Part shown: piece by piece, positions 2,909 to 35,593 of the stretch
How the letters are laid out: each line of letters starts with the position of its first letter
How positions within the stretch are numbered: the first letter of the stretch is position 1
Assembly (NCBI GenBank): GCA_008080735.1
Contig: SHMW01000007.1
Span: 21,315-85,314 of the forward strand
Length of the DNA: 64,000 nucleotides
Direction: 5' to 3'
From: Promethearchaeota archaeon
GTDB lineage: Archaea; Asgardarchaeota; Lokiarchaeia; Sigyniarchaeales; SOKP01
Translations under genes and position numbers: made by a program
The notes under the pieces: generated by a model
What the model was told of the DNA's origin: nothing
The model's database searches: none
The model's input: only the letters and a program-made list of their open reading frames with translations

Positions 2909-3340
2909 TCAATATGAGATATCCCGGTCCTCTAAAAACGATTTAATTTTTTCTTCAAGTTCATCCCGTGCAGATCTAAATCGTTCAATTCTTTCTTCCT
3001 CAGAACCTTCAAATGCAGCGGGATCTTCAATATTCCAAAATAACCTCGTGCTCACTCCTGGCAGGGTGGGACATAATTTTTCAGCCTTTTGACATACGGT
3101 AATAACAATCCCGAAATGCTTCTCTCCTAAATATTGATCCAAATCTTTAGAGTAATGATCACTCATATCATATCCCTTTTCTTCCATAACTTTTTTAGTA
3201 AGAGGATGAATTTCCTTTGGCTCAAACCCCGCGCTGAATACATTGAAATAATCTCCAGCAAGTTTGTCCAAAATCGCTTCTGCCATCTGACTTCTTGCTT
3301 GATTATGAGTACATAAAAAAATTACACTCGGCTTTTTCAT
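2909..3340 (-). CDS. arsC: Arsenate reductase, LMW-PTP / thioredoxin-coupled type
   Basis: CTHNQARSQMAE P-loop, TVC..CP resolving pair, WNIEDP. Confidence 0.88.
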   Translation of the reverse strand: MKKPSVIFLCTHNQARSQMAEAILDKLAGDYFNVFSAGFEPKEIHPLTKKVMEEKGYDMSDHYSKDLDQYLGEKHFGIVITVCQKAEKLCPTLPGVSTRLFWNIEDPAAFEGSEEERIERFRSARDELEEKIKSFLEDRDISY

Positions 3341-3441
3341 AAATCAATCATCATTGAATTTAATTTAAAAATTACTTCTATATAATATATATTTTTAGGC
3401 GATTTACTCAATACAAAAATTTTTGAGGAGGCGATCCTCAT

Positions 3442-3477
3442 GTCGATCTCTTACTAAGATTTATTAAGAGATTTCAT
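3442..3477 (-). promoter_or_regulatory. Candidate SECIS element (eukaryote/Lokiarchaeal-like core)
   Basis: Minus strand ATGAA-ATCTCTTA-ATAAATCTTAG-TAAGAGAT-CGAC: UGAN/NGAN core, 8-bp perfect helix, AAA in the apical region. Starts 12 nt after the TAA of the read-through frame. Lower helix is weak. Confidence 0.5.
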
Positions 3478-3489
3478 TCATTTTTATTA

Positions 3490-3942
3490 TTAATCAAAAT
3501 AATGTCCAAAGTGTTCGTGGTTTTTTCCATATCTTTTATCTAAGCTATTTTTAAATTCAGCAATGTCTAACCTTTCCCGAATCTTTTCTCATCAACAACC
3601 AGGGTCAAGTTGAATATTAATGTCACTCTCTGGTATTAAGGAATAATCGGGATTTTCATGTAAAGGCATAAATTCTCTATTAGGGCCGTAGGCCATTATT
3701 CCCACATCATCATATATTTTATTGGTTTTCGGATTCCAGATTAATTGTAAATAGTTATAAATATATCCTTCGAAAATGGGGAAGATACAATCTTCTGGAT
3801 TATTTTTTATGTATTTGTCGACTTTAGCAATGGCTTCAGCTAGATTCGCATCGTCTTTAATTTGGACATTAAAAGATTTTCCTTGAGACAACCCACTATA
3901 GGGCATGCTTATACTAATTTTGATGGTTTTAAATTCAATCAC
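3490..3942 (-). CDS. MoaD/ThiS-like beta-grasp protein; putative selenoprotein with tandem UGA-UGA (GC-U-U), 150 aa if read through (116 aa to first TGA)
   Basis: GTG start 3942; ...CCT GGT TGT TGA TGA GAA AAG ATT..., then 32 open codons (EKIRERLDIAEFKNSLDKRYGKNHEHFGHYFD) to TAA TAA TAA; SECIS-like hairpin directly downstream. Confidence 0.55.
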
Positions 3943-4005: not shown

Positions 4006-4431
4006 CTATTTGCTTGACCATAATTTGACCTTACTTTCTATTTGGTCACGTATTTTTCTAAAAAAAGCCAATTTTTCCTCCTCGGAGCCTTCAAACGCTG
4101 CGGGGTCTTCGAAAGGCCAATGTAATTCTTCTTGTACACCCAGAATAGTGGGGCAGGATTCTTTAGCACTCGAACAAACAGTAATAACAATATCAATATC
4201 AATTTTCTTCATTAATTCTCTTATATGCTTTGAGTTATGACCACTCCAATCGAATCCTGCCTCTTCGAGCACTTTTATAGTATATGGATGTATGGGATGC
4301 GGTTCTGTTCCTGCACTATAGGCATTATATCTATCATTTCCATATTTATTGATAAATGCTTCCGTCATTTGACTCCTGCATGAGTTCCCCGTACATACGA
4401 CTACTATATTTTTTTTACCCATTTGAATCAT
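4006..4431 (-). CDS. arsC: Arsenate reductase, thioredoxin-coupled type
   Basis: CTGNSCRSQM, TVCSSAKESCP, HWPFEDP. Confidence 0.93.
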   Translation of the reverse strand: MIQMGKKNIVVVCTGNSCRSQMTEAFINKYGNDRYNAYSAGTEPHPIHPYTIKVLEEAGFDWSGHNSKHIRELMKKIDIDIVITVCSSAKESCPTILGVQEELHWPFEDPAAFEGSEEEKLAFFRKIRDQIESKVKLWSSK

Positions 4432-4462: not shown

Positions 4463-4741
4463 TTAATTTATGAATCCTCTTTCCTTTAAAATCTTGGGTA
4501 ATTGTTTTTTTAAAGCATAAACTGAGGATATTTTTTTTTTTTCATCAATTATAATACATTTTTGAAATAATTTCATCTTCGCAGCTTTTTTGGAATGTAA
4601 TGATTTTGTATCGTGTTCAATATATTTTATATATGGTGTAAGGACTTCAAAAACGCGATTCATAAAATTTTCCCATTCACATGCACAAACTTGAAGCGGA
4701 ACATAAATATCTACTTTAACTTTTTCATTCTGGTTTGACAT
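4463..4741 (-). CDS. Small Cys-motif protein (CxC), possible thioredoxin-like/metal chaperone
   Basis: VDIYVPLQVCACEW strand-CxC-helix pattern; inside ars/hgc operon. Confidence 0.55.
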   Translation of the reverse strand: MSNQNEKVKVDIYVPLQVCACEWENFMNRVFEVLTPYIKYIEHDTKSLHSKKAAKMKLFQKCIIIDEKKKISSVYALKKQLPKILKERGFIN

Positions 4742-4768: not shown

Positions 4769-5104
4769 TTAACAACAACATTCATTATTATTTTTCTTCG
4801 AACGTTTTCTAGCATCCCATAAGCACCCACACCCTTTTTGTTCTTGCATTATTATCGCGTGGGTTGGACAATTTCTCTCACATGCACTACATTCAGTACA
4901 TTTTTCAGGCTCACCGATATTATATGTCCCATCGTTTTCCTCTTTTAGAAGTCCAAATGGGCATATCTCCTCACACAAACCGCAACCGATACATTTTGAG
5001 GGATCTATAGCTATCTTTAAGTTTAAATTCTTCAAAAAACCTTCAATAACACTGCTAGAGTCACAACAGCTATTGTTTTTTTCTAATTTTGTCATTTTTC
5101 TCAA
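4769..5104 (-). CDS. hgcB: HgcB-like 2[4Fe-4S] ferredoxin
   Basis: CIGCGLCEEICP and CTECSACERNCP, GCGC, C-terminal CCC; directly downstream of HgcA-like gene. Confidence 0.8.
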   Translation of the reverse strand: MRKMTKLEKNNSCCDSSSVIEGFLKNLNLKIAIDPSKCIGCGLCEEICPFGLLKEENDGTYNIGEPEKCTECSACERNCPTHAIIMQEQKGCGCLWDARKRSKKNNNECCC

Positions 5105-5121
5105 AACATTATAGATTCTTA

Positions 5122-6786
5122 TTATAATATTATTATACTCAAAAGGGTAAGAAATAACCCAACACAGAGTAAAATGTAATTTAATTTTTTAAATAATGGA
5201 TATTCATTTCTAATTTCTCTTGGGTTTGTTGACATAGTATATCCGCTAAAAGACATTGTAGTGAAGAATCCAATCCATAGAAAAAAGATTAAATTTAGAA
5301 TAACGTAGTATAACGAAAAACTAAGAAACCACGTAACTATTCCAAGGGAAATTGTATTAATAATACCAAAAAACATACTTTTTAGAACAAAATTACGCGT
5401 AAAGTTAGAGAGAGGGTAAAGGAGAATTAATAAAAGATTTGGAAAGAGTATCCAAATTAAAAGATCGGCAGCCATCCAAGTTTTATTGATGATATTCGCA
5501 AGATCTAGGGCAAAAAGGATAAAAAATAGAATAATTAATGGAAGAAGAAATATTTTTCTCAAAAGAAATGTCGTATGTGTTATTCCCGCAGGAATCCGAT
5601 GTCGGAAAGTAAATTTGGCTCTCTTCATTTGCTTAGACTTCTTCTTTGGTTTTTTAATAAGGTATTCCTTCAAGTACCGTGACCATACTGGACCATATTC
5701 AATCTTAAATGGAAATATTTCTGAATGCTCTGGTAAATTGGGTTTTGAAAGCCCTCCGGCAGAAAGCTGGGGTAAAATGATAGTATTATTGTCAGTAATA
5801 TGTTTCACGCCTGTCGCTTCAACCGCTTCAAGTAATTGTTCATTACCAAAATCATCTCCTCTCGCAGCACACCAGACATTAATACCATTAGAGTCAATAC
5901 ATAATATCCATGCATCAATACCTTCTAAATCTCTCATAACTTTAATAAAAGTATATGCATAATTAGCAGTTGCAATAATCGGAGAATAATTATTTGGATT
6001 ACCCGATTTATATAATCCAGGTTCAATCGGAACATTATCAACCTGACCTGTCAATAGGCATCTCCAAATTTTTAGTTGTGATGAAATACCTTTTATTTTT
6101 GGTTTTTCTGGTTTATAATAACCCGGTTCATTCTTTTCTTCTTCAAATGATTTTTCTAATTCTATAGCTTGAATTGATCCGTGAGTCCATTTTTTTATGT
6201 CGGCTATTTTGAAACCAATCGGTTCTAAATAATCTTCAAAATACTCTAAAGGATTAGTTCTCTCAAGTTTTAATCTTCTTAATTTTTTATTATATAACCA
6301 CCTTTTCACCCAGAATGGAACCTTCCAAACTCCAGAGGGAATAAACTCTGCTGCAATTATTAATCGACCATCAGATTTTAATGCTTTCCACGCATTACGA
6401 AGAAAGATTTGTTGTTCCAACGGTCTTAGTTCTGATAACATAAAGGTACTAATGATTAAATCCTGAGAATCCTCTGGAACTTTCAAATCTTTAATTGTAC
6501 CAATTTGATATAGCAAATCTATATTATCTTTTTTTGGCATATTTTTCAAAGCATAGCTAATCATCTGATAATTTTCATCAAGAGCTCTGACTTTAGCGCC
6601 TTTTAACGCAATCTTTAAAGCCAAAATCCCAGTGCCGCACCCAACTTCTAAAACAGATTGATCATATTCAATCTTTTCTAAGATCCAGTTCTGAATTTTA
6701 ATATTTACTCCTTTTGTGAGATTAGTAAACTTTGAATCGTAATTTGCAGGTTCCTGCTCCAATTTTTGCATGTAAGTAACAGCCAT
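5122..6786 (-). CDS. Class I SAM methyltransferase fused to HgcA-like corrinoid-binding and transmembrane domains
   Basis: N-term VLEVGCGTG. Middle PIEPGLY..SPIIATANY..DAWILCIDSNGINVWCAARG..ILPQLSA..YGPVW. C-term TM helices with TMSFSGYT..TNPREIRNEY. Confidence 0.88.
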   Translation of the reverse strand: MAVTYMQKLEQEPANYDSKFTNLTKGVNIKIQNWILEKIEYDQSVLEVGCGTGILALKIALKGAKVRALDENYQMISYALKNMPKKDNIDLLYQIGTIKDLKVPEDSQDLIISTFMLSELRPLEQQIFLRNAWKALKSDGRLIIAAEFIPSGVWKVPFWVKRWLYNKKLRRLKLERTNPLEYFEDYLEPIGFKIADIKKWTHGSIQAIELEKSFEEEKNEPGYYKPEKPKIKGISSQLKIWRCLLTGQVDNVPIEPGLYKSGNPNNYSPIIATANYAYTFIKVMRDLEGIDAWILCIDSNGINVWCAARGDDFGNEQLLEAVEATGVKHITDNNTIILPQLSAGGLSKPNLPEHSEIFPFKIEYGPVWSRYLKEYLIKKPKKKSKQMKRAKFTFRHRIPAGITHTTFLLRKIFLLPLIILFFILFALDLANIINKTWMAADLLIWILFPNLLLILLYPLSNFTRNFVLKSMFFGIINTISLGIVTWFLSFSLYYVILNLIFFLWIGFFTTMSFSGYTMSTNPREIRNEYPLFKKLNYILLCVGLFLTLLSIIIL

Positions 6787-6810: not shown

Positions 6811-7875
6811 TTATTTTTTATTTATCCTCCAAAAGCCTTTTCTTCCGAGGAATTTCCCTATATATACAATGGAGAGCATTATTGGAATCTCCCAAAAAAG
6901 CCCCATAGTTGTCCCAAGGGCAGCTATGCTTCCAACCCCGTATAATCCCACTGCAGTTGCGATTGCAATTTCAAAATGCGACGATGAACCTATTATTACG
7001 CTGATTATCGCCTCCTTATAAGCGAAGCCCAGAATTTTCGTAACCATGATGTTGTATAAGACAACGATAAAAAATCCCACCAACAAGGGGATAGAAACGA
7101 TGACCATTAATTGGGGATTGTTCAATAATACTTCTCCATTTAAGGAAAACAGAATAATTAATGTTGTCAATAAGGCTACGATAGAGATCTTTCCTACAGC
7201 AGGTTTATAGGTATTTTGAAACCAACTTTCACCTTTCGATTTTATTAAAAATTTTCGTGAAAGAATGCCTATTAAAAGTGGAAGTCCAATGAAAACTATT
7301 CCAGAAATTAGAAGTTGAGTCCAATCAATAGGGATATTCTGTATTCCCGTCAATAAAGACACCATAGGTACATATCCAATTATTATTGTAATCGTGTTTA
7401 TGCTAGTTGTCAATACATTCTGTTCTTGATTTCCTTTTGCCATCCAACCCCAAACTAGGACCATCGCGGTACATGGAGAACTGGATAAAAGAATTATTGC
7501 AACAATGAGCTGCTGATCCACTAAAAAAATGTTAGCCATTGCCAATCCGACAAATGGGGCAATTAACCAATTTGAAACTAACGTGGCGATGACGGGTTTT
7601 GGATCTCTTCCTATCTGTTTTAATTCTGAGTATTGAAAATTTAACATCGCAGGATACATCATCAAAAATAAGCAAATGCCTATAGGAATTGAGATCCCAC
7701 CTATTTTGATTGATTCGATGAATTCTCCTATTCCTGAAACCACTTGAGAAAGTAAAATCCCAATGAATATACATAGAGCAACCCACGCAGGAAGAAACTT
7801 TTCAAAATAGCCAAGTTTTTTTTCTCTTTCTTTTAGCTCTTCCTCAATAGTTACTGAATTTCTTTTTTCAGACAT
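6811..7875 (-). CDS. acr3: Arsenite efflux transporter Acr3
   Basis: LFLMMYP, SNWLIAP, SPCTAMVLVW, SSSHFEIAIA; about 10 TM segments. Confidence 0.95.
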   Translation of the reverse strand: MSEKRNSVTIEEELKEREKKLGYFEKFLPAWVALCIFIGILLSQVVSGIGEFIESIKIGGISIPIGICLFLMMYPAMLNFQYSELKQIGRDPKPVIATLVSNWLIAPFVGLAMANIFLVDQQLIVAIILLSSSPCTAMVLVWGWMAKGNQEQNVLTTSINTITIIIGYVPMVSLLTGIQNIPIDWTQLLISGIVFIGLPLLIGILSRKFLIKSKGESWFQNTYKPAVGKISIVALLTTLIILFSLNGEVLLNNPQLMVIVSIPLLVGFFIVVLYNIMVTKILGFAYKEAIISVIIGSSSHFEIAIATAVGLYGVGSIAALGTTMGLFWEIPIMLSIVYIGKFLGRKGFWRINKK

Positions 7876-9594: not shown

Positions 9595-9984
9595 GTGATG
9601 AATACTTTAGAGAGTTGCGTGGATATGGAGGGTGTTAATATGGTCCAATATTTTAATGAATTGAGGGAATTAGGAAAATCTATTCAAAAAAATAAAAAGT
9701 TTAGAGAAGTCTTGGACTTCTGCAACACTCTGGGCAATGAAGAACGTTTAAAAATCGTTGAGAGTCTTAAAAAGCAAGACCATTGTGTATGCGAATTAGA
9801 GGTTATTTTAGACAAATCTCAACCAACCATTTCCCATCACTTACGGGAACTGGAAAAGATTGGACTCATACGAGGCTGGAAAAAAGGAAAATTTACTCAT
9901 TATGATATTGTTGATGAGAAAATGGAGCATTATATAAGTTTATTGACATCACGTTTTAAAGAGAAGGGAAAATCCTCTAATTAA
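9595..9984 (+). CDS. arsR: ArsR/SmtB family metalloregulator
   Basis: LGNEERLKIV, HCVCELEVIL, SQPTISHHLRELEKIGLI; CVC As(III)-type site; divergent from the acr3 operon. Confidence 0.88.
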   Translation: MMNTLESCVDMEGVNMVQYFNELRELGKSIQKNKKFREVLDFCNTLGNEERLKIVESLKKQDHCVCELEVILDKSQPTISHHLRELEKIGLIRGWKKGKFTHYDIVDEKMEHYISLLTSRFKEKGKSSN

Positions 9985-34943: not shown

Positions 34944-35119
34944 ACTAATATGTCATCTCTAAATTGGATTGATATTAATTAACTTAGGCAGATATTAAAG
35001 ATTTGAGTCTTTAAAAAATAAACTTTTAATAAATTTTTTCTATTTTATAAAAATTAGGTTTAAGTAAATAGGGGAGATAATTTTAATAATAAGTATTTAA
35101 CAGATGGAAACTGAGTTCA

Positions 35120-35593
35120 ATGAAAGATAAATTTGATATGGTCGGAACTAAAATAGAAGAGTTTTCATTGCCAAATTCACGTGGAGAGAAATTAAATATC
35201 CGAGACCTTCAAGGAAAGAATGTAGTAGTGGTCTTGCTGAGAGATATTAAGTGACCGTATTGTAGATGGCATATCGGGCATCTTCGCAGAGATTATGACA
35301 AATTCCAAGACAAAAATACCGAATTATACCCTATTTTAGTAGACGAGGAAGAAAACGCTCAAAAGATGGAAGAAAAATATGCACGTAATAAATATCCCAT
35401 TTTTTACGATAAGGAAAACCAAGTTGCGGAAATGTTAAACCAAGAGAAAAAGCTATTGAAGTTGGGGAGATTACCCGGATTACTCATACTCGACAAGGAA
35501 AATGTCATACAATATGCATATTATAGCGATTCAATGAAAGATATTCCAGAAAATGAGGAACTTTTTGAAGTTATAAATAATTTGAATGAATAA
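35120..35593 (+). CDS. Peroxiredoxin-like (AhpC/TSA) selenoprotein, UxxC, 157 aa
   Basis: ATG 35120: MKDKFDMVGTKIEEFSLPNSRGEKLNIRDLQGKNVVVVLLRDIK-TGA(35252-35254)-PYCRWHIGHLRRDY..PGLLILDKENVIQYAY; TGA sits at the CxxC first-Cys position. Confidence 0.88.

Follow-up and report, generated by a model that had tools for sequence, protein, structure and literature searches.

The gene considered here lies on the minus strand at positions 3493 to 3942 of a 64,000-nucleotide (nt) stretch of DNA from a Promethearchaeota archaeon (NCBI GenBank assembly GCA_008080735.1, contig SHMW01000007.1, positions 21,315 to 85,314 of the forward strand; the whole stretch is called the window below), and it stands in an arsenic operon headed by an ACR3-type efflux permease. 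It very probably encodes a genuine selenoprotein of 150 residues, whose frame runs through two directly adjacent UGA codons. We document recoding signals, conservation of the gene, the fold class of its product, the selenocysteine (Sec) machinery of the genome and the linkage to the operon; from the recoding signals, the conservation and the Sec machinery we infer that Sec is inserted at both UGA codons. The UU family, as we call this gene and its relatives, is almost certainly a new selenoprotein family, absent from published catalogues. We further suggest, tentatively and as something that falls somewhat short of an even chance, that this would be the first natural Sec-Sec family and that, with a CxC partner protein, it would form a selenium-dependent module of most Lokiarchaeia which captures As(III) for ACR3 or replaces a missing arsenate reductase.

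At the level of decoding, the ribosome would read the two consecutive UGA codons as Sec117-Sec118, the elongation factor EFsec delivering Sec-tRNA(Sec). EFsec would be directed by a single eukaryote-like kink-turn selenocysteine insertion sequence (SECIS), which stands some 110 nt farther downstream in what is 3' untranslated or intergenic sequence. In the resulting protein the exit loop of a beta-grasp domain would bear Gly-Cys-Sec-Sec at the position of the sulfur-carrier Gly-Gly, with a helical tail of 32 residues behind it.

Gene structure and the twin UGA codons

The open reading frame (ORF) 3942..3595 on the minus strand ends in ...D-P-G-C, with GGT at 3600-3598 (Gly) and TGT at 3597-3595 (Cys116), followed by TGA TGA. 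Beyond the twin TGA there are 32 further sense codons (3588-3493, EKIRERL...HYFD), up to TAA TAA TAA. When the minus strand was re-read, the coordinates that an earlier note on this DNA had given all proved correct. The features of the gene are the following.

3493 to 3942, minus strand: coding sequence of the UU selenoprotein, 150 residues, GTG start at 3942-3940, with Cys116 and the predicted Sec117 and Sec118
3589 to 3594, minus strand: twin in-frame UGA (3594-3592 and 3591-3589), the predicted Sec117-Sec118
3595 to 3597, minus strand: TGT codon of Cys116, the ancestral conserved Cys of a wider beta-grasp family, as judged from non-Sec distant homologues and the alignment
3484 to 3492, minus strand: triple stop, TAA TAA TAA

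In the AlphaFold2 (AF2) model residues 1-113 make up the beta-grasp domain, and residues 119-150 the helical tail ending HYFD. The GTG start followed by ATx (V-I) was found repeatedly, in many homologues. Several family genes (L020 1988-2449, L023, L039 and L034/L035) have no in-frame ATG, GTG or TTG upstream of the conserved first beta-strand, and their sequences suggest initiation at ATA or ATT, or another initiation mode.

Public gene calls of the NCBI type shorten the product to 104-116 amino acids (aa), and NCBI entries of 99-112 aa are named 'hypothetical protein'; two database entries (P0073, P0074) call the tail as a separate peptide of 37-39 aa. TGA is also an ordinary stop elsewhere in the genome, where it terminates 354 of the 2011 ORFs of at least 250 aa (18%). 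Such observations would fit an explanation in which Sec is not inserted at both codons, the product ends in PGC or PGCU, and the downstream conservation reflects an RNA element or a separate small ORF. We regard this as very improbable. In every case the tail shares the frame of the ORF before it, at zero spacing, and it lacks a start codon of its own that is conserved. No relative has let either TGA drift to TAA or TAG. Substitutions in the tail are dominated by third codon positions, its amino-acid conservation exceeds that of the N-terminal domain, and AF2 packs its helices confidently onto the domain.

Conservation of the UGA pair and of the tail

A six-frame search with the 150-residue read-through, in which stops inside matches were counted, covered 400 genomes of the phylum. 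It matched 139 of them, including 117 of the 134 genomes of the same family (about 87%). Throughout the 139 genomes, every match that spans residues 117-118 contains two in-frame TGAs, and some contain three; the matches in the phylum reach residue 149 or 150 at 37-98% identity. The sole TGA-free match is a fragment at a contig end that covers residues 2-77. Five members from other families of the order or class, at 29-40% identity, have two TGAs as well, and those read out show D-A/P-G-C-U-U. Outside the class a match was found in one of 239 genomes, and it was weak. The organisms of the family are represented by metagenome-assembled genomes (MAGs) of Promethearchaeota/Promethearchaeia (Lokiarchaeia).

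Translation of the homologues gives the family motif ...(P)D(S/P/A)-G-C-U-U-EKV(R/K)NRLDIG(K/E)FKTIIRKKYGK(D/N)NExFAHYFK, and in the homologue alignment the tail is at least as conserved at the amino-acid level as the N-terminal domain. In each of 76 distinct genes of the family, frame 0 has no stop in the 31 codons past the UGA pair; frames 1 and 2 meet stops in 72 and 76 of them, respectively. Differences counted within subtypes at first, second and third codon positions (5220/3352/7992 for the GCUU subtype and 4010/3147/7902 for the ADUU subtype, both described below) are dominated by the third. The tail past the twin TGA, which the earlier note had described as 32 protein-like codons, is thus borne out by the conservation of homologues and by coding-type substitutions.

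That note had expected the alignment of homologues with the read-through to continue beyond PGC, with Cys or TGA at the two positions and coding-type substitutions in the tail. The 139 genomes and the 76 genes display such an alignment and such substitutions, and the two positions have TGA; Cys was not found there, the non-Sec relatives having Ile, Ser or Thr. A single Sec in a product ending GCU and a plain double stop, both of which it had left as possibilities, are rejected by the conserved tail. Since the tail is conserved and carries an in-frame coding signature, and since TGA is not reassigned, we reject a double stop and a GCU-COOH product as well as the idea that the tail is non-coding.

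Some annotation pipelines translated relatives with TGA as Trp, a choice that would fit a reading of the pair by a standard amino acid, either through near-cognate Trp or Cys or through a local reassignment as in genetic codes 4 or 25. This explanation appears just as far-fetched as an early stop. The share of long ORFs ending in TGA (18%) speaks against it, and a need for Trp or Cys would show as TGG or TGY in some of the roughly 170 relatives, none of which has either codon at the UGA positions. Two findings set out below likewise count against it: the Sec machinery is complete, and the gene has a dedicated SECIS behind it, of the class that serves the other selenoproteins of the genome.

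The SECIS element

Two conserved elements follow the stop codons.

3437 to 3483, minus strand: Asgard eSECIS-like (lokiSECIS) element, supported by covariation and by covariance model R1
3414 to 3439, minus strand: second conserved G+C hairpin, GAGGA 3439-3435 with UCCUC 3429-3425, then an A5-U5 run

In the first, the C-stem AUG (3481-3479) pairs with CAU (3442-3440) and is followed by a 3-nt bulge (3478-3476), the tandem sheared pairs G3475.A3443 and A3474.G3444, an upper helix formed by 3472-3465 and 3453-3446, and an A-rich apical loop (3464-3454). Almost every gene of the family has one such conserved element 10-25 nt past its stop, composed of a 3-bp C-stem, a 3-nt bulge (R-A-U), tandem G.A/A.G pairs from AUGA...UGAC, a helix of 8-9 bp, an apical loop that opens with an A-run, and the second G+C hairpin.

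In an alignment of 62 distinct 3' untranslated regions, 90.4% of the cells are paired and 13 of the 17 pairs show compensatory, both-sided changes, with pair types that vary along the helix (such as UA/CG/UG for columns 13-39 and CG/UA for columns 18-33). None of 500 shuffles reached any of five covariation measures, a test that is inflated by sequence kinship; controls in which the 3' partner was slid gave 40-56% pairing, and we judge these controls, together with the many pair types, to be convincing. The second hairpin (helix 3) is 89.7% paired in the same alignment, with compensatory changes in three of its five pairs, and it may be a SECIS extension or a terminator.

Covariance model R1, built from the UU family alone, was run on the whole 4.1-Mb genome. 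It found the query locus at 62.9 bits and three more matches at E <0.01 (38.3, 32.4 and 27.5 bits), each of which sits directly 3' of an hdrA-vhuD pair with TGAs in frame at the known Sec positions. A fourth, partial match had 19.9 bits (E 0.5). Since a model of the UU family alone detects the hdrA-vhuD elements, the element behind the UU gene is the SECIS of the genome's own selenoproteins. The hairpin that the earlier note had called SECIS-like, about 12 nt beyond the stops, is therefore real: its upper helix (3472-3465 with 3453-3446) has compensatory changes and its class is shared with the hdrA-vhuD SECIS. Published descriptions of Lokiarchaeial SECIS elements list an AUGA...GA core, an A-run in the apical loop and sharing by adjacent genes (PMC4989117; PMC11227280). 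The core (AUGA...GA) and the A-rich apical loop of the UU-gene element agree with them (PMC11227280), and in tandem UU pairs (L020, L027) the SECIS stands only behind the second gene. Rfam, which has no Loki-type model, gave no SECIS match on 3300-3620, either at the gathering score or at E up to 10.

In three members (L014, L029 and L031) the UU frame has no TAA or TAG ahead of the SECIS and runs into the element with the UGA of the AUGA core in frame; to judge from these sequences, the SECIS core itself may be the source of the stop codon.

Selenocysteine machinery and other selenoproteins of the genome

The earlier note had named tRNA-Sec, PSTK, SepSecS, EFsec and SelD as the machinery to look for, and all five are present. 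SepSecS (C15:58185-59342) matches at 389 bits. EFsec, 5 kb from it, reaches 243.9 bits, just above the curated cut-off. PSTK is full length at 178.6 bits (E 2.4e-52), a score under NCBIfam's strict cut-off, and the SelD gene itself has one in-frame TGA. The tRNA gene and a further selenoprotein gene of the window are located as follows.

C15:60227-60370, outside the window, minus strand: tRNA-Sec(UCA), between SepSecS and EFsec, with two introns
about 35093-35590, plus strand: PrxL (peroxiredoxin-like) selenoprotein gene, TGA at 35252-35254, motif UPYC, AhpC-TSA match of 82 bits when read through

The unspliced tRNA-Sec was missed both by ARAGORN on the whole genome (32 tRNAs) and by Rfam. Each of the six other genomes in the genus has a tRNA-Sec, and the DNA of one of these served as the query that located the gene. 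Two introns, one of 22 nt behind the anticodon and one of 29 nt within the T-loop, interrupt the gene, which for this reason was visible only through its relative's gene. Once it had been spliced in silico, ARAGORN called a tRNA-SeC(tca) of 93 nt, whose acceptor stem has 9 bp and whose fold is of the 9/4 type.

The PrxL gene is the independent UxxC gene that had been pointed out in the window, and it is real. After its stop comes an A-rich loop, AAAAAAUGCUGG, preceded by AUGA, at a spacing longer than that of the UU-family SECIS.

Fold, subtypes and distant relatives

Searches of Pfam and NCBIfam gave nothing for the read-through UU protein nor for its 32-aa tail. With the family alignment, AF2 modelled the protein at a predicted local distance difference test (pLDDT) score of 89.3 and a predicted TM-score (pTM) of 0.86. 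The score dips at residues 11-20 (72), 51-60 (71) and 111-120 (67, the C-U-U loop), and is 89-97 for residues 121-150, where the tail helices pack onto the domain. Foldseek matches are weak (E 4e-3 to 3e-2) and uniformly beta-grasp: Urm1, SAMP, MoaD, the transcobalamin beta domain and a superantigen beta-grasp domain. VIA-align gave Z 7.0-7.2 for the beta domains of haptocorrin, transcobalamin and intrinsic factor, for CysO and for SAMP1, and Z of about 6 for MoaD; a Z of about 7 is fold-level evidence only, and the list of matches is homogeneous. The ubiquitin-like fold proposed in the earlier note is supported at that level by AF2, Foldseek and VIA-align alike. Over 79-90 aligned residues the C-termini of the sulfur carriers fall on residues 114-118 of the UU model, and these alignment ranges suggest that Cys-Sec-Sec stands in place of the Gly-Gly end of MoaD, CysO and SAMP. 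The transcobalamin matches also suggested a corrinoid link to the HgcA-like gene of the operon, an idea to be set beside the presence of that module in only 14-16 of 63 loci.

The distinct genes fall into three subtypes, G-C-U-U (n=34), (H)-A-D-U-U (n=37) and U-G-U-U with three predicted Sec (n=5). In a quick maximum-likelihood tree, rooted at the midpoint only, ADUU (support 96) and UGUU (100) are single clades, whereas the GCUU genes are paraphyletic and supply the deepest UU branches. The earlier note had put forward the C-U-U triad as a possible high-affinity metalloid site, a role that the operon context suggests; its U-U part is invariant, and C-U-U as such does not hold across the family, the sister subtypes having A-D-U-U and U-G-U-U. 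Genes that fall within the Loki ADUU clade also come from several MAGs whose labels are Thor-, Odin-, Hod- or Hermodarchaeota. One MAG labelled 'Candidatus Nanopelagicaceae bacterium' (L065, L078; DATKTW010000027.1, DATKTW010000069.1) has typical Lokiarchaeial ars/UU operons; the bin has probably been mislabelled or contaminated.

Among 1.84 billion representative proteins a profile of the family found only 76 relatives, most of which end just ahead of U-U; some are translated with TGA as Trp (GCWW, ADWW, WGWW). A distant non-Sec group of about 130 aa has G-(G/P)-C-(I/S/T)-(T/S)-(D/E) instead. These non-Sec relatives keep only the preceding Cys, which argues that the Cys is ancestral and that the two Sec replace ordinary residues; and because Sec replaces ordinary residues (I/S/T) rather than Cys, the family would be missed by searches for Sec/Cys pairs. 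The contexts of the non-Sec homologues (P0022, P0040, P0041, P0064, P0028) are heterogeneous and without ars genes, one having a NifU_N neighbour.

The fold raises another explanation, that the selenoprotein acts outside arsenic binding or reduction, as a sulfur or selenium carrier or as a chaperone for another thiophilic metal, its linkage to ars genes reflecting co-regulation only. The beta-grasp matches do include CysO, MoaD, SAMP and Urm1, with U-U at their C-terminal position, one non-Sec relative adjoins a gene for the NifU_N scaffold, and H-x-D-U-U looks like a metal site; moreover, regulators of the ArsR/SmtB type sense many metals. In a carrier of this kind, however, the tail would block the free C-terminus. 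The 22 neighbour clusters that recur most often within 6 kb, not all of which are annotated, include no evident gene of the E1-like (ThiF/MoeB) type. ACR3 exports As(III)/Sb(III) specifically, and the linkage of the UU gene to ACR3 and ArsR is very tight. We therefore consider a role outside arsenic improbable.

The arsenic operon

The genes of the locus are listed in the order of the operon, with the divergent regulator last.

6811 to 7875, minus strand: ACR3-type arsenite efflux permease, first gene of the operon (PF01758 SBF, 139 bits)
5122 to 6786, minus strand: fusion of a CpaM-like S-adenosylmethionine methyltransferase with an HgcA-like corrinoid/transmembrane protein (NCBIfam HgcA_corrinoid 169 bits, CpaM 141 bits, both under curated cut-offs)
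4769 to 5104, minus strand: HgcB-like 2x[4Fe-4S] ferredoxin ending CCC (NCBIfam HgcB 56 bits, under curated cut-off)
4463 to 4741, minus strand: thioredoxin-fold CxC protein, 92 aa, with invariant C19-x-C21 at the start of helix 1
4006 to 4431, minus strand: arsenate reductase ArsC of the low-molecular-weight phosphatase (LMWP), thioredoxin-coupled type, upstream of the UU gene (PF01451; TIGR02691 138 bits)
2909 to 3340, minus strand: second LMWP-type ArsC, directly downstream of the SECIS (TIGR02691 115 bits)
9595 to 9984, plus strand: ArsR-family regulator with a C-V-C motif, divergent (from the ORF translation; homologue in 46 of 63 loci)

From ACR3 through the CpaM::HgcA-like, HgcB-like, CxC, ArsC and UU genes to the second ArsC, the cluster is tight and co-oriented on the minus strand. 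The neighbourhood survey covered 63 related loci with flanks of up to 10 kb. ACR3 is found in 46 of them, as is an ArsR divergent from it, and the CxC protein in 48; the HgcA/HgcB-like module occurs in 14-16, and an ArsC in 6. The arrangement hardly varies, about 55 of 58 loci having ArsR< ACR3> [HgcA> HgcB>] CxC> (ADUU|UGUU|GCUU)> [GCUU>] [ArsC>]. The HgcA/HgcB-like module is optional and, where present, always lies between ACR3 and the CxC gene; its HgcA-like protein has the cap helix NVWCAARG, and the module may serve corrinoid-dependent metalloid methylation. Downstream of the operon, on the minus strand, are genes for an HD-domain protein (1018-1629) and a multi-pass membrane protein (1796-2740), found beside the UU gene in 30 and 16 of the 63 loci, respectively; they may reflect plain synteny or be further operon members.

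The CxC gene mostly lies 40-300 nt upstream of the UU gene. It adjoins it in 24 of 29 loci of the ADUU subtype, whose proteins offer just two chalcogen ligands, as against 9 of 17 loci with GCUU only, a comparison that is only suggestive as the genomes are related. Profile searches of Pfam, NCBIfam and the PDB gave no sequence match for its product. The AF2 model (pLDDT 91.1) has a thioredoxin fold (Z up to 10.2, TM-score 0.55-0.66) with CxC at the position of the thioredoxin CxxC; thioredoxins fill the top 50 fold matches, and ArsD is not among these. Nor did PF06953 (ArsD) match either the UU or the CxC protein. In HgcA-type operons the CxC protein gains a CC-rich N-terminal extension (L069, L073, L077, L078, L080, L086, L098, L102, L106).

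An arsC gene stands 130-190 nt downstream of the UU gene in at least 17 related genomes. A strong match to LMWP ArsC was found in only 39 of 135 genomes of the family, and the Grx-type ArsC (PF03960) in none. Two LMWP-type ArsC matches directly 3' of a UU gene (G184:C10:57773-58153 and G186:C60:2181-2567) contain one in-frame TGA and, going by their sequences, may be Sec-containing arsenate reductases.

Proposed function and its alternatives

The UU protein probably acts on arsenite, by binding or by processing it. Vicinal dithiol tails are metal(loid) hand-off sites in ArsD, MerA and HgcB. On this analogy, and from the operon context, we propose that the UU protein is a metalloid-binding hand-off protein in ACR3-based arsenic detoxification, a role to which we give only a little less than an even chance. 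Its vicinal diselenol would bind As(III), aided by Cys116 or by the CxC pair of the neighbouring thioredoxin-fold protein. As(III) would come from direct uptake or as the product of the adjacent ArsC. The UU protein would then deliver it to the pump, ACR3, and also to the HgcAB-like module for corrinoid methylation in operons that have one.

The same Sec-Sec protein could instead be a redox relay, in which Cys-Sec-Sec cycles between the selenol and the diselenide or selenenylsulfide, like the Gly-Cys-Sec-Gly tail of animal thioredoxin reductase (TrxR), and which, with the CxC protein, re-reduces ArsC or reduces arsenate where arsC is absent. This role is less likely but a serious rival, and a good deal of the neighbourhood agrees with it. 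When LMWP ArsC is present it lies immediately behind the UU gene in at least 17 genomes, this window included; the UU gene is in 117 of 134 genomes versus 39 of 135 for LMWP ArsC, and the CxC and UU genes fill the arsC slot of classical arsRBC operons. On the other hand, no NAD(P)H- or ferredoxin-linked reductase recurs among the neighbour clusters of the UU gene within 6 kb, the ADUU subtype has no Cys with which to form a TrxR-like selenenylsulfide, and a vicinal diselenide is a strained eight-membered ring. Strict anaerobes of sulfidic sediment may not need arsenate reduction, and a missing ArsC then proves little.

Several points weigh against a Sec-Sec protein that hands on As(III), the explanation we prefer. 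The selenoprotein is known here from genes, and its function is read from the gene neighbourhood. To our knowledge, decoding of adjacent UGA-UGA has no characterised natural precedent. Among the 76 representatives drawn from 1.84 billion proteins there is no Cys-for-Sec homologue, which leaves the family without the Sec/Cys pair by which selenoproteins are usually recognised. His and Asp, as found in the H-A-D-U-U subtype, are atypical ligands of As(III), and in a few loci of the family (L074, L075, L085, L100) the 7 kb around the gene contain no ars gene. In addition, the redox relay is favoured both by the thioredoxin fold of the conserved partner, whose CxC stands in place of CxxC, and by the fact that most known selenoproteins are oxidoreductases (PMC4989117).

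With its presence in about 87% of the family's genomes, the UU family enlarges the archaeal selenoproteome and offers a natural test case for the decoding of adjacent UGAs. If both Sec residues are inserted, the Asgard Sec machinery would decode two consecutive UGAs with one SECIS; if the proposed role is correct, selenium use would be tied to arsenic detoxification through a vicinal diselenol and As-Se affinity, a tie undescribed for any ars system. A practical consequence is that gene callers mis-annotate UU operons systematically, and that databases hold UU proteins in shortened form.

Comparison with known systems

Published Asgard selenoproteomes comprise five families in Mariotti 2016 (PMC4989117) and seven in Huang 2024, who searched by homology to known selenoproteins (PMC11227280). 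Neither the UU family nor any ars-linked archaeal selenoprotein is in these two papers, in the 2026 review PMC13188914 or in its NCBIfam list, and literature searches brought up neither a natural protein with adjacent Sec-Sec nor an Asgard ars operon that includes a selenoprotein. The family would have escaped the catalogues because it has no Cys-for-Sec homologue and no domain model, published families having been found mainly through their likeness to known selenoproteins or to homologues with Cys (PMC4989117, PMC11227280, PMC13188914). The UU gene shares with the known Lokiarchaeial selenoprotein genes (HdrA-VhuD, VhuU/FrhA, PrxL and SelD; PMC4989117, PMC11227280) the same organisms, the same recoding system and the same class of kink-turn SECIS (lokiSECIS, or Asgard type I eSECIS-like) in the 3' untranslated region. 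Genes with several Sec codons are likewise known there, and a SECIS may serve two adjacent genes, in hdrA-vhuD as in the tandem UU pairs of L020 and L027. Compared with the seven listed Asgard families, however, the UU family is an unrelated protein, its Sec residues are directly adjacent, no homologue has Cys for Sec, and its operon is one of arsenic rather than energy metabolism.

To the sulfur carriers of the beta-grasp class (MoaD, ThiS, CysO, SAMP, Urm1) the likeness is one of fold class only (Z 6-7.1), with Cys-Sec-Sec at the site of the Gly-Gly thiocarboxylate. The UU protein has no sequence similarity to them and no free C-terminal Gly-Gly, and it has the extra helical tail.

Bacterial SECIS elements lie within the coding region. 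Sec proteins tied to metal(loid) resistance loci have been defined computationally in bacteria, namely MbdU 'CU', SaoC, UXX-star and Sec-containing ArsM, which belong to Hg or As resistance loci and in which Sec is a proposed metal(loid) ligand (NCBIfam; PMC13188914). The UU protein resembles them in being a Sec protein linked to such a locus. They differ in being bacterial; none of their models matches the UU protein, and none of them is a U-U pair on a beta-grasp fold.

The Gly-Cys-Sec-Gly tail of animal TrxR and the homologous Cys-Cys tail of mercuric reductase MerA offer a parallel in local chemistry, with adjacent chalcogens preceded by Gly on a flexible segment (pLDDT 67 for residues 111-120 of the UU protein). 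Such tails shuttle electrons in TrxR and Hg(II) in MerA. In the UU protein, by contrast, G-C-U is internal (residues 115-117 of 150), with 32 structured residues behind it and no flavoprotein domain; there are two Sec, and Cys is absent in ADUU.

ArsD binds As(III) through Cys12-Cys13 plus Cys18 and hands it over to the efflux system. Like the UU protein, it is a small accessory protein of ars operons with a vicinal chalcogen pair, and it is on this likeness that the hand-off role proposed here is partly modelled. The two have no sequence relationship: ArsD has a thioredoxin fold, serves the ArsA ATPase and uses thiols, whereas the UU protein would combine a beta-grasp fold with selenols and the ACR3 pump. 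In the operon described here the thioredoxin fold belongs to the neighbouring CxC protein.

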